A stretch of DNA of 64,000 nucleotides from positions 32,001-96,000 of the IMG/VR virus record IMGVR_UViG_3300001525_000065. One strand, 5' to 3'. Of the stretch, positions 1 through 46,276 are shown in pieces. The notes beneath the pieces were generated by a model. The model made no database searches. It saw only the letters and a program-made list of their open reading frames with translations, and was not told the origin of the DNA. The number at the start of each line of letters is the position of its first letter. The stretch's first letter is position 1. A program made the translations under genes and the position numbers. The stretch is from a virus (taxonomy: Duplodnaviria > Caudoviricetes).

Positions 1-2343
1 GATGATTTCTGTAAGCGTGAATTGGATAATGCAGATAGGATCTCATACGATATAGAGACGAATGCAGAACCTACTTTCTCGAATAAATTTGAGGTAGTAG
101 GATTCTCATTGGCATCAAGAGGAGATAAAGGAAGTTATACAGTTATTAAATCTCTTGATTACGAGATGCCAAAGAGAGATGTATTACTGGTTAAATCGAG
201 AATACGCAAGTTATTGACAGAGAAGAATTGTGTATTGACATATAACTGCCTGTATGAGTTGCCTGGTACTCTTAATTGGGCTAATATTGAGATTAATCAT
301 GTGTTTGATGTATTCGTAATGGTCAAGCTCATGGTAGGTGACTCAGCCAAGTATATGGGTGGTCGAGGATTGAAAGCACAGTGCTCGTTACATCTAGGAT
401 ACAAGGATTGGTCAAAGGATCTGGACATTTATTTGGATGCGATTCAAGATCTCAAGCATAAGAAAGGTACAGTAGTAAAAACTCTTCTTAAATATTATAA
501 TAAAGCAGAAGTAGTGAATCTTATGCAGATACTTGAGCAGAAGATTCAAGATGATCCTGATTGTATCTCACGAGATGTTGTTTCTTATGGATTAGCACCA
601 TACAAACTCATAGGGAAGTATGGTGGAATTGATGCAGAAGTATTGTTCCCATTGTACGATTATTATGAAGATCAAATAAATAAGATGAGTGCAGAGATGA
701 ATATCGATTTGCATAAAGGTCTTGATTATTGGATGAAGCATCATCTAGCAGCATACGTTCTTGAGCGTAATGGAGCATACTGGGATGAGCAAGAAGCTCA
801 GAAAGTTTCAGCATGGTGTAGGAATATTGCACAAGAGTCATTGGCATATCTTGTATCATCTCCATTGACATTCCCATGGATAAAGAATAAAGTTATTTAT
901 AATGAATACCTGGCATGGCTTAGAAACAATAAGTGCCAAGAGATTCTAGGAAGAGATACAATTCCTAAGAGAATAACTAAGAATACATTAGAAATTATCA
1001 CAACTAATCAAGATCTTATGAGTATTCTTGAAGGCATGAGCTTGTCTCCTAGTAAGACTAGTTCAGAAGGGTATAAGTATAAACTTGCTATGGGGCATTT
1101 TGAAAAGCTGAGTGAGCCTTATCGCAATTCTCATGCAGAAGAGTTTGATGATTTTGCTCAGATGTGGATGGATAAATATATGGCAGAATCTCATTCAGTT
1201 GATGAAATGAAAGCATTATTTAATCCCATGAGTAATACAGCAGGCATAAAAGCTCAAATAAGTGAGATTCTTATAACTCCTGCAGTGAGATATGCTCGAA
1301 TTTATGACCAGATTCTTATGAAGATGGAAGCTCCAGATTTTGATATAGATGCAATTTGTACAGCTAAGTGGGATTCTAGTGTAGTATTTGAATCAGATAA
1401 GAAGTTATTGACTCTTGTGAGTAAGTTGAATAGCATGGATATCTCTCAGAGTAAGAAGCTAGAGATGTTCTCGAGGCAGCTTAATTCATCTACAGATTAT
1501 AGATCATGGATGATGAAAAATTTCATAAAGGACTCATTGAATTATAAACTGGATAGTACAGATGATAATCATATTATTGATATCTATAGATGGTATACAT
1601 TGACTGGAGTAGATATAGAGGATGAATCTACATGGAATGACAATTTTAGATGGCTGTATAACTATCGTATGTTTAAGAAGTCATCAAAGATGATATCAGT
1701 GTATATAGATGGTGCAGTTGGTCATCAGTCAGTGTATTGTGCAGATAAAGAATCGCTAGAACGTGGAGACCTAATGACTAAAACATGTGGATCATATAAA
1801 GATCATAATGGTGCATACATATTGCATACTAAGTTTTCTCCATGTGCTGCTGATACTGGACGATGGAAAGCAACGATGCATGTCCTCCCTAGTGGACGCA
1901 CAATAAAGCGTGTAATAAAATCAAGATTTCCTGGAGGAGTTGTATTCTGCCCTGACTGTTCCCAGGCAGAGGTGCGTACTCTTGCACGAGTAGCTCAGGA
2001 TAAGAATTTGATGGATGCATTTGAGAATGGTCTGGATATACATAGATATGTAGCATGCCTCACTGGAGATACGGAAGTACTGCTTGCAGATGGTTCAAGT
2101 AGAATGATAAAAGATCTAGTTGATTCAGAAGTGGGAGTAGCATGCTTGGATAAGAATAATGAAGTCACTACTAAGATGGCTACTAACATCAGAAAGACAA
2201 AGTCAACAACGAAGATAGTAGAAGTAACTCTTGATAATGGAGAAGTAATAAGATGCACGCCTGAGCATCTATGGCTTACTAAGAATGGATATATTGAAGC
2301 AAAAGATCTAGAAGGTTTAGATGTAGTAGGAGTAGCTAAATGA
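1..2343 (+). CDS. polA: Family A DNA polymerase, N-terminal part, ending in split-intein N-half (IntN 2056-2340); frame is open from base 1, so the start lies upstream of the window
   Basis: 3'-5' exonuclease motif YDIET; TGRW; motif A DCSQAEVR; DIHRYVA followed by intein block A CLTGDTEV and block B CTPEHLW; stops after 95 intein residues. Confidence 0.93.
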   Translation, partial: DDFCKRELDNADRISYDIETNAEPTFSNKFEVVGFSLASRGDKGSYTVIKSLDYEMPKRDVLLVKSRIRKLLTEKNCVLTYNCLYELPGTLNWANIEINHVFDVFVMVKLMVGDSAKYMGGRGLKAQCSLHLGYKDWSKDLDIYLDAIQDLKHKKGTVVKTLLKYYNKAEVVNLMQILEQKIQDDPDCISRDVVSYGLAPYKLIGKYGGIDAEVLFPLYDYYEDQINKMSAEMNIDLHKGLDYWMKHHLAAYVLERNGAYWDEQEAQKVSAWCRNIAQESLAYLVSSPLTFPWIKNKVIYNEYLAWLRNNKCQEILGRDTIPKRITKNTLEIITTNQDLMSILEGMSLSPSKTSSEGYKYKLAMGHFEKLSEPYRNSHAEEFDDFAQMWMDKYMAESHSVDEMKALFNPMSNTAGIKAQISEILITPAVRYARIYDQILMKMEAPDFDIDAICTAKWDSSVVFESDKKLLTLVSKLNSMDISQSKKLEMFSRQLNSSTDYRSWMMKNFIKDSLNYKLDSTDDNHIIDIYRWYTLTGVDIEDESTWNDNFRWLYNYRMFKKSSKMISVYIDGAVGHQSVYCADKESLERGDLMTKTCGSYKDHNGAYILHTKFSPCAADTGRWKATMHVLPSGRTIKRVIKSRFPGGVVFCPDCSQAEVRTLARVAQDKNLMDAFENGLDIHRYVACLTGDTEVLLADGSSRMIKDLVDSEVGVACLDKNNEVTTKMATNIRKTKSTTKIVEVTLDNGEVIRCTPEHLWLTKNGYIEAKDLEGLDVVGVAK

Positions 2344-3968
2344 AATACACTAAGAGATGCATAATTTGTGATAAAGAATTCACTACTACATCTGCAACTA
2401 AAGTGATATGCAATGATGTACACTATCGCAAATGCGAGATATGTGAGGCAGAATTCATTCTGCCTGCTAGAGCTCCTGATAGAACTACATGCAGCAAAAG
2501 ATGCACATTCATGAAGAATTATGGAGTCCCTAGTCCATTTATGTCAGAAGTAGTTAAGGCTAAATCTCGTGAGACTAGTATGAGAAAGTATGGAACTATC
2601 AATCCTTTATCATCTGATGTAGTGAAGAATAAGATCAAAGAGACCAATCAGCAGAAATATGGATGTGATAATCCTATGAAGTCAGAAGAGATAAAAGCGA
2701 AAGCTAGAGTCACTAATCAGAATAGATATGGAGTAGACTACCCTATGCAATCTACTGAGGTGCAAGAGAAGTCTAAGCGAACGTTACTTGATAAATATGG
2801 AGTAGACAATATAAGCAAGTTATCTGAGACATGGGATAAGACTCATGAAACTTGGATGAAGAATTATGGAGTACCTCATCCGCTTAAATCAGCAGTAGTG
2901 AAAGATAAAGTAATACAGACTAATCAAGATAAGTATGGAGTAGACTATTTTACACAATCTGATGAATACAAGATCAAAACTTCTGAGGCTTGTATGGATA
3001 AGTATGGAGTTGCTTATCCGTGTATGACTGATCAATGTATTCAGGCTAGTAGCCGAATATCTAAAGTGAATAAACGATTCATGAAATTCTTAAACGATCA
3101 TGGAATAGATGCTGAATATGAGTACCGTCTAGGCAGATTTTCTTATGATCTTCATGTATTGAATACTAACATACTTATAGAAATCGATCCTACATTTACT
3201 CATAATGTAACTACTCCTCATCATGATTATATGATTGATAAAAGTTATCATTTGAGCAAGACATTTATAGCTGAAGAGAATGGATTTAGATGTATACATG
3301 TCTTTGACTGGGATGACTGGAGCAAGATTCTGGACGTAATAAATCCTGATAAACATAAGGTCTATGCACGTAAATGCCAGATAACGAAGATAAGTAGTGC
3401 AGAGTGCGATGACTTCATGAACAAGTACCATTTGCAGAATACCTGCAGAGGTCAATCAGTTAGACTTGGATTATCATACAATGATGAGCTAATTCAGGTT
3501 ATGACATTTGGTAAACCTCGATACAATAAGAATTATGAGTATGAGTTGCTGAGATTATGTACTAAATCTAGATACTCTGCAGTAGGTGGATCCAATAAGC
3601 TATTCAACTACTTCATACATAATTATAATCCTAGATCCATCATCTCTTATTGTGATAATGCCAAGTTTACTGGAGATGTGTATGATTCATTAGGAATGGT
3701 ACTGCAATCATTATCAGATATAGGTATTCATTGGTTTCACAATGGTATTCACATTACTGATAATCTACTGAGACAGCAGGGATTCGATAGGTTACTAGGC
3801 GATAAGTATGGCACCTATGGCAAAGGTACTAATAATGAAGAGCTGATGAAAATGCATGGATTCATGCAAGTTCCTGATTGTGGACAAAAGATATTTGTAT
3901 GGAGTAATGAGAATAATCTGAACGAGTCTACTTGTGGAGGTAATGATAATGGAAGTAACCAAGCATAA
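2340..3968 (+). CDS. Free-standing putative homing endonuclease (Zn-finger N-terminus, KYG repeats, Vsr/PD-(D/E)xK-like nuclease, Hef-like C-terminal domain)
   Basis: CxxC pairs; repeated KYGVD/NP units; YDLHV...ILIEID...H...GFRCIHVFD nuclease pattern; sits between the two intein halves. Confidence 0.75.
   Translation: MKYTKRCIICDKEFTTTSATKVICNDVHYRKCEICEAEFILPARAPDRTTCSKRCTFMKNYGVPSPFMSEVVKAKSRETSMRKYGTINPLSSDVVKNKIKETNQQKYGCDNPMKSEEIKAKARVTNQNRYGVDYPMQSTEVQEKSKRTLLDKYGVDNISKLSETWDKTHETWMKNYGVPHPLKSAVVKDKVIQTNQDKYGVDYFTQSDEYKIKTSEACMDKYGVAYPCMTDQCIQASSRISKVNKRFMKFLNDHGIDAEYEYRLGRFSYDLHVLNTNILIEIDPTFTHNVTTPHHDYMIDKSYHLSKTFIAEENGFRCIHVFDWDDWSKILDVINPDKHKVYARKCQITKISSAECDDFMNKYHLQNTCRGQSVRLGLSYNDELIQVMTFGKPRYNKNYEYELLRLCTKSRYSAVGGSNKLFNYFIHNYNPRSIISYCDNAKFTGDVYDSLGMVLQSLSDIGIHWFHNGIHITDNLLRQQGFDRLLGDKYGTYGKGTNNEELMKMHGFMQVPDCGQKIFVWSNENNLNESTCGGNDNGSNQA
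3903..3930 (+). promoter_or_regulatory. Promoter-like motif AGTAAT-N12-AACGAGTCTA upstream of the IntC-polymerase gene
   Basis: Matches the motif at 6201, 8348, 10767, 53201(-) and 63663(-); directly upstream of an SD and ATG. Confidence 0.65.
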
Positions 3969-4923
3969 AGTTGTATCAGTAAAACAAATAGAATTAGATG
4001 AACCAATAGATGTATATGACATGGAGGTAGATGAGCATCATAACTTCTGTGTATCATGTAATGATGGTACTAGCGTAGTAGTTCATAATTGTAAAGCATT
4101 CAATAAGCCAATGGAAGAAGTTACTAAGGCTGAACGAAGCTTTGCTAAAGGTGCTGTCTTTGGTCTTCTGTACGGTGAGTCAGAAAGATCATTTGCTGAG
4201 ACATTCACACATGGTGACATTGATAGAGCTAAAGAGATATTCAATAGCATCTTCACTGCATTTCCTGGCATAAAGACTTATATTGAGAAAGCTCATCAAC
4301 AGTATAGAGATCATAAGAAAGTCACATTATTGACAGATAGATTCATAGATCTTACTGAGATAGAACGTCAGAATGGTAATGACACTGATAGAATTCTGAG
4401 ACAATCACAAAATTATGTGATACAAGGAAGTTGTTGTGACATAGCAGGTCTTATTCTGTATAAGATATGTGAATTTATAAAGAATAATAACATGAAGAGT
4501 AAGCCATTTTGTTTCATACATGACAGCATAGAGATTGATTGTGATCCTTCAGAGACCTTCAGAATGATTGATGCACTTGCTCCACTATTCAATCAGTATC
4601 CTAGAGATGCATTTGGAGTGCCTATGGCATCAGACATAGTGCTCAGTACTAACATGGGAGCAGAATGCGAAGTAGTAGAACATATTCATGACGATGATTA
4701 TCAGCACATAGAATTGACACTTAATGGATTCAAGGATGACCTAGATGATCTGTATGACAACTGGTTACCAGTGTATAAATCAGTTACTTATGTGGATGAT
4801 GAATCATCTATAACTGAAGAGAGATTCCCAAGATCTGGATTGTTTCAGAAGAAGGTTACATTCTCAGAGGATATGGGTAAGACTAAGATCAAGTTGAATC
4901 GTAAATTCATAATAGAGGTATAA
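3949..4923 (+). CDS. polA: Split-intein C-half (3949-4089) fused to the DNA polymerase A C-terminal part
   Basis: GGAGG at 3936-3940 before ATG 3949; block F VYDMEVDEHHNF, block G VVHN then Cys+1; motif B RSFAKGAVFGLLYG; motif C HDSIE. Confidence 0.93.
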   Translation: MEVTKHKVVSVKQIELDEPIDVYDMEVDEHHNFCVSCNDGTSVVVHNCKAFNKPMEEVTKAERSFAKGAVFGLLYGESERSFAETFTHGDIDRAKEIFNSIFTAFPGIKTYIEKAHQQYRDHKKVTLLTDRFIDLTEIERQNGNDTDRILRQSQNYVIQGSCCDIAGLILYKICEFIKNNNMKSKPFCFIHDSIEIDCDPSETFRMIDALAPLFNQYPRDAFGVPMASDIVLSTNMGAECEVVEHIHDDDYQHIELTLNGFKDDLDDLYDNWLPVYKSVTYVDDESSITEERFPRSGLFQKKVTFSEDMGKTKIKLNRKFIIEV

Positions 4924-37438: not shown

Positions 37439-40400
37439 TTATGCCAGTATCGCGCCTCTGCAATACATATTGCTATTGATCATGCGCTTACCATAGCTCA
37501 TCATCCATGCACGACGTCCTACAAGGTCATCAGTGCGAAGGAGATCAGAAGGAGTAATGGGAAGGAAAGGACAATATACATCGTTTGTGTTACTGCTACT
37601 TCGTTTCCAAGTAGCATCACTAAGTTTCCTTAGTGACCAGACTATATCATTACCTCATGTATTATGATGAGGTATCTCACACTTTGAACTCACTTGAGTC
37701 CTACAGAGTTGCCACTCTTAGTCGTTGAACTTTCTACTTATACATAATGTATAAGATAGCTTAGCTGCTGATTATCCATTGTTGCAAGAGGTTAGATTAC
37801 TCATACTCTTATACTGAAGATTCTTTCTGCTTTCGCTGCATTCGCACTTGCCATCACTGGCTATGTTGTAGCTCTTCAGCCTTTAGGAGTTTCCAGCAAT
37901 TCATGAGATTTTCAATGACCAGTCACCTGGCCATGGGACTGTTTAGTAACCAATTGCTTATGCAGCTTTATTAGTACTAGTTAATCCTGCATCAAAGAGA
38001 CCTGTACCTCTGTATCCAAGCACGTACTCATTAGCAGGGAAGTCAGGAGATACATATACAGTGAACTGCCCATAAGTGCCAAGGAGGTAAGGACCTACAC
38101 CTGCATTACCGCTAGGAACAAAGTTACGAGAAGCAGAGATAACTGCTGCTACGCCAAGTCCACATACGAGAACATTCTATTCATTCAATAAGAATCGTTA
38201 CTTCTTATTCGTGTATCATACATGCACTGCTAATCATTTCTGACTAGAATAGACTATATCTTCATCATGGCATCTATTACCAATGACATGATGCTCATCA
38301 TTTTGATCTTACTTAAGATCTACTCTACTTGCTTCTTCACTAGTGGATTTCTCACTAGTTATGCTTTCGATAGTCGTTGAACTTCTACTCATGACTAATC
38401 ATGATGTAGTAGCTGCTGATTGTCCATGTATCTCAATAATTCTCAAGCATTCACACTTGTCATCACTGACTATGTTGTAGCTTATTGAGCTTTAGGAGTT
38501 TCCAGCAATTAGATGAGTTTAGACAGACCGATGTTACGCAGCCTGTACCTTGCGAGTATTCTGATAGATGATGTTGCTACCTTCAAGAAGTCTAGCATAG
38601 AAGGAGTCATAGTGGTCAAGGAGTGAAATGGCAGTGGGCTGAGCCTTAGACCATGCAGTGTTAGTAGCGCCTGCCTGAGCAAGAAGGTCTCCGCATACCT
38701 CCATATCCACTTCATGTGCTAGCTCACCAGCAACCTCAGCTGCCATTAGAGCATCGATCTGATTTCCATCATTTATGTTAGCTAGTCATTTCTGACTAGA
38801 TCAGACTATATCTTCATCTCATTGTCAGTGAGATGTCATTCATTTCGATTTAAGGGGATCTCACCCACTCATCATGTATTGTGATGAGCCCTACTCCTAT
38901 AGAATAGTTTATGTCAGTCTATTCCTTATAATTGGGATAGTCGTTGAACTTTATCCTATTCGGATTTTAGCTGCTGATTGTCCATTATGGAGATGTTTAG
39001 GATTTAACCATGCATCATATACTCATTTCTTTTTACTTTCGTAGCATTCACACTTGTGCTTATTTCATCACTATGTTGTAGCATGAGTATCTTTGGGAGT
39101 TTCCAGCAATTAGAATGATTTATTATTGTACTCATCACTGAGTACCGGAGCTTGGCTTTCAGATGATCGCTAACTCCTTCTCGAACTGAAGCGCAGCACT
39201 GAGGGAATAAAGAGATTTAATGGTACGATCCTTAGCTACGATCGGAAGAGATTCAATAGAGAGCTGAACCTCAGGAACTGCAGCAGGAGCATACTTATTG
39301 TTATAAGTGTATGTAGCAGTCCATGTACCTGCACCAGGAGCAGCAGTGAAGGTAAGTGCGCCAGTTGCATAGTCAATAGAACCAGCATCAGTGCCGCCCT
39401 TCTTGAGGTTGCCATTACCATCATCAGTGTAGACATTAGTGCCTTCAGTGATGTTGACAGATCCAGGAGCTACAGGAATCCATGCAAGAGATACAGTCGT
39501 ATCAGTTGCACCAAGTGCAAGAACTTCACCATCAACAAGTTCTGCAGTGTAGTTCTCATCAGACTGACCACCATAGATGGACGTCATGAAGGTGTCACCT
39601 GCTTTAACCTGACCCTTGTTGGATCCATAGTTATACTTAATATAATTTACCATACCTACGCGAGCAGACCAATTACCTTACAAATACATCGTATCCACGT
39701 ATTCTCTACATATTACTATGTAGTTGAGACTATATCATCATCTGAAGTACTGTTACTATACATCAGATGCTTCGCACTTCGATTTAAAGGATTTATCATG
39801 AGTTATTATCGCTCATGTACCTACCACTTGGCTCTACTCTACTCAGTTATTCACTAGTGTATTTCTCACTAGTTATCCTTTCGATAGTCGTTGCTCCTCT
39901 AGTACTACTCAGGGCACTAGAGGATCAGGATTGTCCATGTACTGCGTAACTTTACATGGAGGTTCCCTGAGTTCACGAAGTTTATCATAATAGATCACTC
40001 TATTATGCCACCTCATTGATGGGCTGCACTGAAACTAGATCGTACATAATGGTGTTAGGTACCATTGCATTAACGATATCCACATTTATCTTACGAATGT
40101 ATCGTATCCATACATTCTCTATACATTACTGTATAGATGAGACTATATCACATTCTCATTGACTCTTCACCAATGAGAACCTCACCATTTCGATTTAAAG
40201 GATTTACCATAAGCTAATCTCACTCATGTACCTACCACTTGGCTCTACTCTACTAGCTTATCATCACTGTCATATCTCAGATTAATTAGTGATTATGCTT
40301 TCGATAGTCGTTGAACTACCATCCTGCATCTAGATGATAGCTGCTGATTGTCCTAGAACTAGTTAATGATCATCCTGGGAGTTCCCAGCAATTAAGTGAG

Positions 40401-40644
40401 TTTGCATAACTAATCACTTAGTTATGGCGCAGGAGATTTACGCCCATCTCTTATATGATCCAGCAGAACCACCAATAGAAGTTACCTGAGTAGCCTCGAG
40501 GAGGTTCTTAGTATTCTCAAGAGTTGCAGCAAGTGCATTCTTACGATCGATGGAGAGAGCCTTACCAGTGGCTTTCTCAGTCATGGTTATACGCTTACCC
40601 CACTTCTCCATAAGAGCTGAATTAGTTTTAGAAATTGCATTCAT
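37439..40644 (-). CDS. Major capsid protein (gp23-like), 443 aa after splicing; exons 40644-40440, 40082-40019, 39669-39173, 38769-38540, 38176-37984, 37581-37439
   Basis: Exons total 1332 nt (444 codons) with no internal stop; junctions restore gp23 motifs WA-L-DIV, VSVQP-M-SARVG, EKE-Y-GNQID, QA-NVLV and DAG-Y-VYCPF. Confidence 0.93.
37582..37983 (-). ncRNA. Group I intron 5 in capsid gene (402 nt, no ORF; enlarged 44-nt P1 loop)
   Basis: P1 GGAU/GUCC with U.G; P AAUUGCUGGAAA, Q AAUCAGCAGC, R GUUCAACGACUA, S GAUAUAGUCU; terminal G. Confidence 0.92.
38177..38539 (-). ncRNA. Group I intron 4 in capsid gene (363 nt, no ORF)
   Basis: P1 ACAGGCU/GGUCUGU; P, Q, R and S elements; P10 AACAU/AUGUU; terminal G. 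Confidence 0.92.
38770..39172 (-). ncRNA. Group I intron 3 in capsid gene (403 nt, no ORF)
   Basis: P1 GGAGU/GCUCC; P, Q, R and S elements; terminal G. Confidence 0.92.
39670..40018 (-). ncRNA. Group I intron 2 in capsid gene (349 nt, no ORF)
   Basis: P1 CCAU/GUGG; covaried P4 UCAGG/CCUGA; R CAACGACUA, S GAUAUAGUCU; terminal G. Confidence 0.9.
40083..40439 (-). ncRNA. Group I intron 1 in capsid gene (357 nt, no ORF)
   Basis: P1 GGCGU/GCGCC; P AAUUGCUGGGAA, Q, R and S elements; terminal G. Confidence 0.92.
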
Positions 40645-42201: not shown

Positions 42202-42671
42202 CTCACTTCCTTTCCATTATCTTTATTGGTTATTGACTTTATCATAGATCGCAATGTATCAAATGTAGATAACATTGCATTAGTATCATCCATAGAGTAC
42301 TTAGACAATGCAGATGATACTGAATGAATTTGCATCTCGCTGAGCAGCTTATGCCTAGATGCGTCATCTAGTGATTTACTAGCTATAAGTACTCGAGTGA
42401 TGTACGATGATAATGCAATAGCTTTATCAACATCAGATGCAGATTCATTCACTAATGATTTATATAAAGGATTCTTATGACGTCTGTCATAAATATCATT
42501 CACTACTGTCTCATTAAGACTAGTAGAAGCTGATTCATAAGAGCTAATGAACTCTAGAATAGATGAATCTATAGTAGATGATGAAGCCAGCTTAGTTAGA
42601 TAAGATGATACATCTGCATGATGAGTATCTCTTATCTCAAATAATTTCTTATAACATGTTAGCCTATCCAT
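42198..42671 (-). CDS. Hypothetical head-module protein
   Basis: Coupled ORF between portal and protease. Confidence 0.7.
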   Translation of the reverse strand: MDRLTCYKKLFEIRDTHHADVSSYLTKLASSSTIDSSILEFISSYESASTSLNETVVNDIYDRRHKNPLYKSLVNESASDVDKAIALSSYITRVLIASKSLDDASRHKLLSEMQIHSVSSALSKYSMDDTNAMLSTFDTLRSMIKSITNKDNGKEVR

Positions 42672-44464
42672 TATTCTACCTCACCTGAGTAATCACCAAA
42701 TTCTTCATCACTAGCAGTAACTGATCCTGGAGGAGTACTGGTCAGTTCATTCTCATCACTGGATGACTCAATAGGACTAGTAGTCTCGCCAGAGGGAGCA
42801 GTTACATCTATATCAATATCATGTGATGGACTTCCACTAATAGGAGTAGATCCGAAGTCACCTGCATCATTGAACTCTTCTTGACCTACTTCATCTTCAG
42901 GTGCATCTCTGAGAATATCTACTAGCTCCGGATCATTCATGAACTGATTAAGCAGATACTCAAATACATCTCTCTTAGTATCATCTGTATATGCCTCACC
43001 AAGTAGCTGCATAATTGCATCAGTGATGTCTAACTTAGTTCTGAGTGTCTCATCACGCTCAGCATCCTCAGTAGTACTAGGTGATACCATCTTGACTGAG
43101 AAGTTATTCACATAATCAGTGAATCCTCTATCAATGGCATATAAATTAAGTAGAGTAGTTATACCTGCGATGTATGCATTCTGTACTCGTTGTACTGATC
43201 TAGCATATCTAGCATCTACTTTAGTAGCGCTTACTCCACCTGAGAATCCATTATCTGGACTATCTAGTCCTAAGTACTGTCTAGGAATTCTGAATCCAGC
43301 TGCAAGCTTATTAGCATAGTGATCTACATCAGTGATGGATCTTACATCAATATCTCCACCTAGTGACTGGAAACTGATAGCACCTTTACCATTACGAGTA
43401 GTAGAATACACTACATTATCAATAGGTCCAGGAGCAGCTTGTGACTTATATGTATCACTGTTCTTATCCATCAGATTCTTCTGCTCGACCATGTTCTTTA
43501 CACGTTTTAGTAGTTCATTAACACGGTTCTTAGGCATGTCACCTACTTCTATCTGAAGGAATCTGATAATAGCTGACCTAGATGCACGATTCATTACTAA
43601 GCTATCTTCCATCAATGATAGATCTTGATAAGTACTGTATACATTCTCTAGTAGAGATCTACCTCTCTTGACTCTGAATGTTTCATTAGTGACTTCACCT
43701 TTACCATTCTTTATCTGAAGAGTGATAGTCTCAGGCACTCTCTCAGTACCTGCAGCTAGATAGATATGCACATAAGACTTCTCATCATAGAGATTATCAG
43801 TAGTATCAATCCAGTATCTGTTATTATATAAGTATTGATTAGCGCCATCCACTGCTTCTTCAGTAGGAGTAGGTGTCTCAGCGAATCCAACTGTCTTACC
43901 TCTGTAGACTATATCAAATATATCTGCAGGATTAGGCACTTGCTCTACATACTCAGAGTAGATGTACCCTTTCTTGACCTTATTGAGTATGAGTCCATCT
44001 TGATTGATCTTATGAACAGCATTATCTGAATCATAATGCAGTTTGAGATATACATCTCCATACATGCATAATGAGTAGATGTGACTCCATGCATTATCAT
44101 TAATGCCTAATACATCTAGCAATCTATTGCAGAATGCAGCAGTATTCTGATCCTCACTCTCTACCCATATAACTTGACCTTGTCTATTTGATGGAGTAGC
44201 ATCATCTGCATACATCTCAATAGCAGATGAAACTAGTGCATCCTGTACCATTCGATCATAAGCTCTGTATCTCTCATTACGAGATGTAGCTAATGTACGA
44301 AATCCATTAAGTGCATTACGATCTAGAAGAGTAGTACCATCTACTTCGAATAGATCAACTAATCCAGCTCTAGCTATCGATGTATTATCAATAGCATCTG
44401 TATTAGCTTTTACTCTAAGTCCTAGTGCCTCACGTAGTCTAGTACCTAGTGGTTTATTAGCCAT
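42671..44464 (-). CDS. Portal protein (gp20-like)
   Basis: YDRM...SAIEMYADD, YGDVY, GRSLLE...LMEDSLVMNR, IEVGDMP, DVDHY...RIP. Confidence 0.92.
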   Translation of the reverse strand: MANKPLGTRLREALGLRVKANTDAIDNTSIARAGLVDLFEVDGTTLLDRNALNGFRTLATSRNERYRAYDRMVQDALVSSAIEMYADDATPSNRQGQVIWVESEDQNTAAFCNRLLDVLGINDNAWSHIYSLCMYGDVYLKLHYDSDNAVHKINQDGLILNKVKKGYIYSEYVEQVPNPADIFDIVYRGKTVGFAETPTPTEEAVDGANQYLYNNRYWIDTTDNLYDEKSYVHIYLAAGTERVPETITLQIKNGKGEVTNETFRVKRGRSLLENVYSTYQDLSLMEDSLVMNRASRSAIIRFLQIEVGDMPKNRVNELLKRVKNMVEQKNLMDKNSDTYKSQAAPGPIDNVVYSTTRNGKGAISFQSLGGDIDVRSITDVDHYANKLAAGFRIPRQYLGLDSPDNGFSGGVSATKVDARYARSVQRVQNAYIAGITTLLNLYAIDRGFTDYVNNFSVKMVSPSTTEDAERDETLRTKLDITDAIMQLLGEAYTDDTKRDVFEYLLNQFMNDPELVDILRDAPEDEVGQEEFNDAGDFGSTPISGSPSHDIDIDVTAPSGETTSPIESSSDENELTSTPPGSVTASDEEFGDYSGEVE

Positions 44465-44484: not shown

Positions 44485-45951
44485 CTAGAATATTAAGAAG
44501 TCATCGTCATTGTTATACAACAAATCAGATATCTCATCATCAGTAACTTTCCATCGATCCTTAGGATCTATCTTGTTACGTACATCAACTACTGATGTAT
44601 CTATTTGATTCTCATCCATTACTGCATTTAACTCAGCTTCAATAGCTTCATCAGTCAACTCAGGTTTATCATCCATATGAGTAGATGGATCATCAAGTAA
44701 TGCATTAGCTGCAGATGCATCAGTAGTAGGTTTATCATCAGTATTAGCATCCATTACATTGTATGCATCATCAGATAGATAAATCTGATCACTGCAGTCA
44801 TACTGAGATGCATTGAATAATGCAGCTGCAAGACTGTCCAGACCATCTTTTGAGCCTTTACCGTCATATGTATGATCGATCTTACCTGTCATGTTATTAC
44901 GTTCTACATTAACCATCTCTAGTACTAATTCATGTATGTTCAATAGACTTACACGTTTCTCATTGATAGCTGACTTAAGACACATGTATGCATCTGGAGT
45001 TCTATCAACTGATAGTAGCTTAGCAGGATATCCAGCATTCTGAAGTATCTGTATGTTATCACGAGATTGGAATCCATCCTGAGTGATACCACATATATTA
45101 AATCCAGATTCCTTCAGATAGTAGATGAATTGTCTATTCTTCTCAAGTGATATCTCATCACCAGATGGACATTGAATAAACACAGTAAAGATATGAGCGA
45201 ATTGCATCTCATGTACTGGGACTGCTTCACCTACATCATTATCGAATCTATCAACCTTTCTTGTACCGGTAATAGCTACCATAGATATACCAGTACGGTC
45301 ACCTGTTAATGACCCATCTATGTGTAAGAAGCAGGGTTTGCTCCTCAGTACTAAATTCACCAATTTAGGATTAAAGTAGTCTGACAATGATTGTGAGTCG
45401 TGACAACCTATTGTCAATACAGGTGTAGTGAATGGATTAGTACGAGGTCCAAATGCCTCTTTTATACGATCATACACTAAGAATTTAGTAGTCAGTGATG
45501 AGCTAATACCTGCATAATCCATTAGTGATGTATCTACATCAAGATCAAATGCAGACTTGAACTCAATAGGTACCTCTATGATCTTATAACCTTGATTAGC
45601 CATAGCTACCTGATCATCTTCATCAGTCATTACTCTACTACGTAGTATCTTATTACCTACTGCTACTAGGAACTTCTTACCTGAATAGATGTTACTAGGC
45701 TTTACATTCCATTGAGGTTCATCTATGACTAGTACAGATGGATTATCTTTGACTGTCTGTATATATGACTCAAGGAAGTCTTGTTCACTCTTCTTAGATG
45801 ATACTAGGAATAGCTTAGCTGCTAGGTCACCACCATCTCGTAGGAATCGAGATTCCATACGACGCTTTATGGCACGATATGACTTCATGATCTTGGACTT
45901 CTCAAATTGTACATCAGCTCCTCCCACGAAGTCTACCTCATCCAATAAAGC
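44485..45951 (-). CDS. Terminase large subunit, C-terminal part from Walker B onward (C-extein of the split intein at 45959-46093)
   Basis: ALLDEVDF, VSS coupling motif, nuclease HID...DRTGI, DGFQS, KIDH...SKD; Walker A absent; frame closed upstream by TGA at 45952-45954. Confidence 0.88.
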   Translation of the reverse strand, partial: ALLDEVDFVGGADVQFEKSKIMKSYRAIKRRMESRFLRDGGDLAAKLFLVSSKKSEQDFLESYIQTVKDNPSVLVIDEPQWNVKPSNIYSGKKFLVAVGNKILRSRVMTDEDDQVAMANQGYKIIEVPIEFKSAFDLDVDTSLMDYAGISSSLTTKFLVYDRIKEAFGPRTNPFTTPVLTIGCHDSQSLSDYFNPKLVNLVLRSKPCFLHIDGSLTGDRTGISMVAITGTRKVDRFDNDVGEAVPVHEMQFAHIFTVFIQCPSGDEISLEKNRQFIYYLKESGFNICGITQDGFQSRDNIQILQNAGYPAKLLSVDRTPDAYMCLKSAINEKRVSLLNIHELVLEMVNVERNNMTGKIDHTYDGKGSKDGLDSLAAALFNASQYDCSDQIYLSDDAYNVMDANTDDKPTTDASAANALLDDPSTHMDDKPELTDEAIEAELNAVMDENQIDTSVVDVRNKIDPKDRWKVTDDEISDLLYNNDDDFLIF

Positions 45952-45958
45952 TCATGAT

Positions 45959-46093
45959 CTAGCAATTATGAGATACTATATAATTATCATGATCACATTT
46001 TACTAAGAAGTTATGATAAGGATTAGCATTTATAACGTCATATACTGGTATTGGATTATCATAATGAATATGTGATACTTTAGTTACTCTCAT
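45959..46093 (-). CDS. Split-intein C-half (43 aa plus Cys+1) of the terminase; missing from the ORF track
   Basis: MRVTKVSHIHYDNPIPVYDVINANPYHNFLVKCDHDNYIVSHN-C then TAG; blocks F and G; SD GGAGGTGATC upstream. Confidence 0.88.
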   Translation of the reverse strand: MRVTKVSHIHYDNPIPVYDVINANPYHNFLVKCDHDNYIVSHNC

Positions 46094-46123
46094 AATTACT
46101 TGATCACCTCCTTCACAAATGTA

Positions 46124-46276
46124 TTATAAATCTTATCTAGCAGTATGCATAGTAATGCATTTGAATATATGAGATGACTAGTGAAGGAGATAGTCATCCA
46201 TACTTCATTTACTTTACTATGTATACTTATCTCATAAGGTCATGAGTCTTATGCTACCTAGATAAGAATTTATAAG
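46124..46276 (-). promoter_or_regulatory. Structured leader (branched stem-loop) upstream of the IntC-terminase gene
   Basis: Closing stem TTATAAATTCTTATCTAG/CTAGATAAGATTTATAA; arm CATAAG/CTTATG; long arm ending GATGACTA/TAGTCATC with loop TCTCCTTCAC. Confidence 0.65.

Follow-up and report, generated by a model that had tools for sequence, protein, structure and literature searches.

The large terminase locus of this phage raises the question of how one polypeptide can be read across ten nucleotides that are closed by a stop codon in both frames. The locus lies on the minus strand of the window (the whole stretch of DNA analysed, 64,000 nucleotides long). A 44-codon open reading frame (ORF) coding for the carboxyl-terminal part of an intein (IntC) ends with the motif H-N-C followed by TAG, and the terminase frame restarts 10 nt further on. 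This arrangement, with a strong Shine-Dalgarno (SD) sequence in front of IntC, had been given in a preliminary description of the DNA and is confirmed at the following coordinates.

46125..46276, minus strand: conserved structured leader 5' of IntC, near-invariant in relatives L008 and L009 (fold z -3.7)
46102..46111, minus strand: extended SD of IntC, including GGAGG at 46111-46107, kept in L008 and L009
45959..46093, minus strand: ORF1, coding for the IntC (43 amino acids) of a naturally split intein plus the +1 Cys; ATG at 46093, closed by TAG
45962..45964, minus strand: putative take-off codon UGC, codon 44, coding for the Cys that is the +1 nucleophile of the intein; exact take-off and landing pairs occur in L160 and L162
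45952..45961, minus strand: 10-nt coding gap TAGATCATGA, composed of UAG (45961-45959), 4 nt and the putative near-cognate landing triplet UGA (45954-45952); the same in L008 and L009
44485..45951, minus strand: ORF2, the carboxyl-terminal half (C-half) of the terminase large subunit, from the middle of the Walker B strand to the nuclease domain (PHROG 9, weak match)
42671..44464, minus strand: T4-like portal gene, directly downstream (context; PF07230, E 2e-51)

TAG closes the IntC frame and TGA the terminase frame, so that the double block described earlier is real. Past the gap ORF2 opens with GCT TTA TTG GAT GAG, coding for the start of A-L-L-D-E-V-D-F. Excision of the 10 nt gives C-A-L-L-D-E, the spacing found in 97 of the 111 intact homologs (a longer one is found in 0 of 111), in agreement with the claim that a normal Walker B motif appears once the gap is removed.

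The gene is a large terminase with an ATPase and RNase H-like nuclease fold and Walker A and B motifs, adjoining the portal gene. This identity is based on the weak PHROG 9 match, the fold of the intact homolog P0124 and the portal-adjacent context; Pfam gave no match for ORF1 or ORF2, PDB sequence searches were blank, and no identical ORF2 protein occurred in the contig index. ORF2 aligns at 49% with residues 205-688 of P0124, whose predicted model (pLDDT 82) matches the large terminases of HK97 and D6E and T4 gp17. The junction falls within strand 201-208 of the model, the strand that ends in the invariant D-E. The distance from Cys+1 to D-E is at most 3 residues in all 111 IntC-bearing homologs, and the corresponding position is exactly eight residues after the HxxG motif in 106 of 106 intein-less homologs.

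The amino-terminal half of the terminase (N-half) is encoded outside the window, at G000:3222-539 on the minus strand, 75 kb off in coordinates. It reads through after removal of a cis intein and of two group I introns (about 1816-1499 and 1351-1010) with U..G boundaries, one of them confirmed by Rfam, and terminates with QDVF and a 97-residue IntN that matches the IntC. IntN thus closes one ORF while IntC, with its own start, opens the other at the same insertion point. In homologs P0002-P0004, P0132 and P0138 an IntC is fused in frame with the terminase C-half. Because such IntC-first C-halves are common among homologs, the terminase intein is, by sequence, a naturally split one, whose motifs predict trans-splicing. 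The intein part recognized in the preliminary description is a clear IntC, with the correction that its partner IntN lies at the end of the distant N-half.

The phage genome is 109.6 kb long with terminal repeats and uses standard stop codons, TAG being the rarest. On the minus strand the terminase C-half precedes the T4-like portal and prohead protease genes. The host may be a clostridium, as suggested by a lysin whose tail is dockerin-like and by a relative found in a Firmicutes MAG. Group I introns are abundant (seven or more); five consecutive ones recognized by Rfam occupy window 37618-40449 (minus strand), apparently within the major capsid gene. The DNA polymerase is also split (window about 2340-4923, plus strand): an IntN is followed by a 542-amino acid ORF, probably an endonuclease, and by a gap-free IntC at 3949-4092. 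The two split inteins of this genome would have to stay orthogonal. The hexamer TCATGA occurs 109 times genome-wide, about 37 being expected from base composition. A promoter and terminator scan gave no excess of promoters over shuffled sequences.

The 10 nt are identical in L008 (an ENA contig, 97% at the amino acid level) and in L009 (a Logan contig, 79%, dS 0.68), where synonymous changes (AAT/AAC, TTA/CTT, GAC/GAT) flank the invariant gap on both sides. The dN/dS ratios relative to L009 are 0.15-0.2 for ORF2 and 0.18 for IntC, at dS of 0.7-0.9, and 0.20 for the portal gene; the full range for ORF2 is 0.07-0.2, indicating purifying selection. Since the gap is kept and selection is like that on the portal gene, an assembly error or a dead gene is very unlikely. 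Alignment of homologs, proposed earlier as a check on the gap, thus sustains the view that a simple sequencing slip does not account for it. A dead gene had also been considered unlikely unless a second copy existed. Only four sites in the genome match intact terminase homologs, which corresponds to one terminase.

Short gaps in related terminase loci

A survey of the terminase loci of relatives yielded 16 distinct short gaps, including that of the window. Their lengths are 1, 4, 4, 6, 7, 7, 9, 9, 9, 10, 10, 11, 11, 11, 25 and 39 nt, covering all three frames, and they are situated 0, 3, 6 or 7 codons past the Cys (+0, +3, +6 and +7); the count leaves out IntC ORFs ending in FFDEIN or NF[TS]DK. 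An in-frame stop codon (TAA, TAG or TGA) opens all 16 directly 3' of the take-off codon, and cutting each gap at its stop restores the Walker B motif and spacing in every case. The last triplet of the gap equals the take-off codon at the first two bases in 13 of the 16 (exact in five, identical or synonymous in nine), where neighbouring triplets predict 1.0 and permutation gives 3.25 (0/200,000), statistics that overstate independence, with optimistic p-values, since the loci are related. The first-two-base match is missing in L174, L166 and L176, while in the window UGA and UGC are alike at two of three positions. Take-off and landing codons co-vary in identity, CUC..CUC in some loci corresponding to CUG..CUG in others and UGC..UGC to UGU..UGU. 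The exact +0 pairs, UGC..UGC in L160 and UGU..UGU in L162, identify Cys as the residue at which take-off would occur. Short duplications produced by insertion might account in part for the matched flanks.

Every gap sits in a split-IntC gene and none was found among the intein-less loci surveyed. About 50 clusters of short IntC proteins end 0-7 residues past the Cys after removal of likely intron classes; DNA was seen for ~15 of these ~50 clusters and some may be contig ends. The Walker B codons that harbour the gaps are also the site of an Rfam group I intron in L015 and, in L175, of an insert of roughly 0.3 kb that resembles an intron but scores below the Rfam threshold, for which reason the two kinds of ORF ending named above were left out of the count. 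Longer intron-like inserts are found within the same codons in L032 and L038. Two terminase homologs, L047 and L052, have in-frame TGA codons at conserved Trp positions, suggesting hosts in which TGA codes for Trp.

The gaps require six changes on a quick tree, from which L171 and P0196 are absent. Near-identical phages differ: L007 has a +6 gap while P0138 is gap-free, and L162 has a +0 gap while that of P0128 and P0250 is apparently at +6. The tree changes and these pairs show that gaps are gained, lost and replaced. The gap of L007 is a 6-nt stop hop of textbook form. The shortest one, of 1 nt, lies in L176-L178 (about 2630-2645) at CUU-UGA-C, within a complete cassette of N-half, endonuclease and IntC; the sequence is presumably a +1 shift site of the type known from release factor 2 (prfB).

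A GIY-YIG-like ORF lies just 5' of IntC in 10 of the 16 gap loci versus 2 of 12 gap-free split loci (p 0.02, for loci that are not independent). One group of these endonucleases (L005, L160, L162 and L163) always accompanies a +0 gap and another (L040, L043 and L176) a +3 gap. Both the group I intron of L015 and a six-codon deletion in L167 occur at the same spot beside an endonuclease. In L167 (2115-2130) H-N-C is directly followed by D-F, the six missing codons including the catalytic D-E, and the neighbouring gene is GIY-YIG; this is either a dead allele or an assembly collapse. In L040 (1398-2140) a second, diverged IntC-terminase-like ORF precedes the endonuclease and the gap-bearing copy. 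Bypass gaps have probably spread together with the GIY-YIG endonucleases. An origin in which the gap disrupts the target of a free-standing enzyme of this type, and so protects the gene against homing, appears somewhat better founded than its opposite. No related GIY-YIG gene was found in the genome of the present phage, and both this phage and L009 retain the gap without the endonuclease.

The start-codon helix and a model for a probable hop

The take-off region of the window is complementary to the initiation region of the same ORF through the following segments.

46088..46107, minus strand: 5' strand of the helix, comprising the 3' end of the SD, the spacer, the start codon and codon 2
45954..45973, minus strand: 3' strand of the helix, with 13 bp over the S-H-N-C codons plus the first base of the stop, followed by 6 bp over gap bases 3-8

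The 13-bp arm is made by the stretch from -7 to +5 around the AUG and the 6-bp arm, onto the gap, by the end of the SD, the duplex amounting to -26.5 kcal/mol. In a genome-wide scan of 14,614 windows the IntC start region is the best non-self partner of the junction (-32.9 kcal/mol), and when leader, IntC and junction are folded together the pair probability of the helix is about 1.0. Its value is reached by 0 of 99 other ORFs of the genome, and no comparable helix is present in the DNA polymerase IntC (-6.6), which lacks a gap. The bypass suggested in the preliminary description included a local hairpin (CUCAU/AUGAG) around the landing codon, which is no better than shuffled sequences (z +0.6) and is displaced by the long-range helix. 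That hairpin is not supported, while the combination of take-off UGC, stop UAG and near-cognate UGA conforms to a rule that fits relatives at four positions. An arm of the leader was also considered as a partner of the junction and rejected: it ranks 447 of 14,614, the TCATGA that they share is common genome-wide, and the pairing is weaker in L009.

A helix of 9-14 bp is present in all eight +0 loci, although other folds outcompete it in L160. Two-sided compensatory changes replace A-U by G-C in L009 and, conversely, G-C by A-U in L162, the change in L174 being one-sided; taken over the aligned +0 loci, covariation is modest, as high a score being reached in 12-14 of 500 shuffles. Among upstream sequences the start region pairs best with the take-off segment in 14 of 17 gap loci versus 2 of 14 gap-free or intron loci. 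In most +3, +6 and +7 loci the start region is altered to pair with the segment that ends at the new take-off codon. Self-pairing exceeds cross-pairing between loci (0/100,000; rank 3 of 5040 inside the +0 class). The IntC ORFs that stop at HNC begin with M-R in 9 of 12 cases versus 7 of 48 intact ones (p 1e-4). Exceptions to the helix are L040 and L043, with a strong partner inside IntC, L017, with none, and L013, in which the start region is the partner but a weak one.

Conservation, selection, the stop and landing rule, the helix and the association with endonucleases were all obtained by sequence comparison, and on this basis programmed translational bypassing triggered by the stop codon is very probably the best explanation of the gap. 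The terminase would result from two genes whose products are joined by protein trans-splicing, the second gene requiring a ribosomal hop. The ribosome would read the 44-codon IntC and stall once UAG occupies the A site, with peptidyl-tRNA-Cys still paired to UGC. This tRNA would then detach and the ribosome slide 10 nt, re-pair at UGA through two of three bases and resume at GCU to yield IntC-C-A-L-L-D-E. Splicing of this product with the IntN of the distant N-half would restore Walker B (QDVF-C-ALLDE).

Zipping of the helix behind the ribosome might drive the forward slide over the gap. The helix can close completely only after the take-off codons emerge from the ribosome, in line with the driver model put forward for T4 gene 60. 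As the start site would be buried in the helix, fewer trailing ribosomes should load and lone ribosomes would be favoured. It can be speculated that termination at UAG frees an IntC-Cys able to splice onto the N-half and waste it, and that hop efficiency limits the terminase. A broader proposal, for and against which the arguments are evenly poised, is that minimal stop-triggered bypass elements of 1-39 nt are widespread in phage terminases and have been repeatedly re-created. The helix between initiation region and take-off site would be their driver, linking initiation with hopping so that ribosomes pass one by one, and would be re-tuned when the gap moves; the proportion of active terminase relative to dead-end IntC-Cys would depend on how efficient the hop is.

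Other readings of the gap

Removal of the 10 nt from the mRNA is an improbable alternative. It could be carried out, for example, by a group I intron acting in trans with an antisense segment of capsid intron 5 as guide, leading to C-S-L-L-D-E. The genome is indeed intron-rich, one register of the gap in the window has U before the insert and G at its end as group I splice-site rules demand, and the intron 5 segment (window 37951-37974, minus strand) is complementary to both gap flanks (11 bp and 8 bp). The U..G register is however available in just 3 of the 16 gaps. The duplex with the intron (-20.4 kcal/mol) ranks 495 of 14,614, compared to -32.9 for the cis helix, and the intron segment pairs into the gap instead of bringing the flanks together. 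Excision would need neither an in-frame stop as first codon nor a matched triplet as last one. A group I intron at the gap itself gave no Rfam match, the insert being just 10 nt long.

A +1 frameshift at UGC-UAG combined with readthrough of UGA is somewhat less probable still. The product would be three residues longer, placing in the Walker B strand extra residues that were seen in 0 of 217 homolog counts. TAG is the rarest stop in the genome, and the 1-nt gap of L176-L178 indicates that simple frameshifting probably occurs among relatives. The window would nevertheless require two rare events, no suppressor tRNA was found in the genome, and gaps of 6, 9, 11, 25 and 39 nt would be left unexplained.

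The same low probability applies to translation of ORF2 from its own start at TTG 45945, the C-half pairing non-covalently with an N-half that the intein merely caps with one Cys. Most +0 loci do have a TTG or ATG two codons past the gap, with SD-like bases in some of them. In L160, L010, L040 and L043, however, the first start codon lies 18-21 codons past the gap, beyond the catalytic D-E, and in L009 the Leu before TTG is preserved through a two-base synonymous change. A separate start would also cut inside a core strand and leave selection on IntC serving nothing. The independent start at this TTG, raised in the preliminary description as one of the findings that would speak against bypassing, is not borne out, since it cannot supply Walker B in the relatives. 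A dead gene or assembly artefact, for which the six-codon deletion at the same spot in L167 might be quoted, is barely conceivable given the same 10 nt in three independent assemblies separated by dS up to 0.68, a dN/dS matching the portal gene and the lack of a second terminase in this genome, which has terminal repeats.

Comparison with known bypassing systems and fractured genes

Ribosome hopping is very rare in natural genes, and to our knowledge its experimentally supported occurrence in bacteria is essentially limited to gene 60 of T4 and the terminase of one Streptomyces phage. Stop-triggered bypassing in the present locus would place it in the ATPase core of the sole DNA-packaging motor gene. 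If true, the making of a single enzyme would involve RNA splicing, both cis- and trans-splicing of protein, and ribosome hopping. The relatives offer 16 natural variants in an essential gene, from a 1-nt shift through hops of 4-11 nt to one of 39 nt, each short enough for a reporter of about 200 nt. Annotation pipelines label such genes as truncated.

Precedents for bypassing have been described in several studies (PMC10732093; PMC5009743; bioRxiv 10.1101/2024.12.09.627546; 10.1101/2022.08.31.505936). The 50-nt bypass of T4 gene 60 and its mobA cassette resemble the terminase gaps in having a stop after the take-off codon, a matched or wobble landing and take-off near codon 45 (PMC5009743; bioRxiv 10.1101/2022.08.31.505936; 10.1101/2024.12.09.627546). 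Both are associated with a free-standing homing endonuclease, and the proposal of a protective gap parallels the protection that the gene 60 gap gives against MobA. Pairing behind the ribosome is the proposed driver in the two systems; in gene 60, where such mRNA pairing was put forward, monosomes bypass better (bioRxiv 10.1101/2024.12.09.627546). The helix described here bears on this model, in which exiting mRNA pushes the ribosome, and on the monosome effect. No sequence relationship to gene 60 and mobA was seen. The gene 60 insert, of about 50 nt at Gly46/Asp45 of a topoisomerase subunit, is served by a local take-off stem-loop and a mini-SD, whereas the terminase gaps are mostly of 4-11 nt, variable in sequence and position, and lie in Walker B behind a split intein. 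In place of a local stem-loop there is a long-range helix that buries the start codon of the ORF itself; no clear mini-SD precedes the landing site, and inspection of IntC revealed no nascent-peptide motif of the KKYK type.

Terminases of Streptomyces phage phiHau3 and of prophages carry non-coding inserts of 7-10 nt at conserved sites, and for a UAA variant of g6/g7, studied in E. coli, mass spectrometry confirmed the bypass (PMC10732093). Their trigger is the rare codon UUA, they were found in 3 of 100 genes, and they have no intein (PMC10732093). In contrast, true stop codons would be the triggers here, in a T4-like phage with a split intein, and ~50 clusters are apparently gapped. Synthetic stop hops in E. 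coli and the byps of Magnusiomyces mitochondria likewise skip a stop or unused codon by a short hop, two of three bases sufficing for landing; the latter rely on relaxed mitochondrial ribosomes and not on a local RNA signal (PMC5009743). A natural in-frame stop hop was not known at the time of the 2016 review (PMC5009743).

The order N-half-IntN, endonuclease and IntC-C-half is that of fractured genes (PMC2677866). It is intact in L176. Subsequent endonuclease loss and separation of the halves, as seen in this phage, is a further trait in common with the fractured genes. In the available part of that paper, bypassing is named just as an unlikely alternative to trans-splicing and a coding gap after IntC is not met.

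The terminase gap works like gene 60 and phiHau3 bypassing and belongs to neither family, because the gene or site is different, a stop replaces UUA, the gaps are short and variable, the intein is split and the helix involves the initiation site. No description of a helix between initiation site and take-off codon was found in the literature searched, and this helix is the new element that the terminase locus adds to the known systems.
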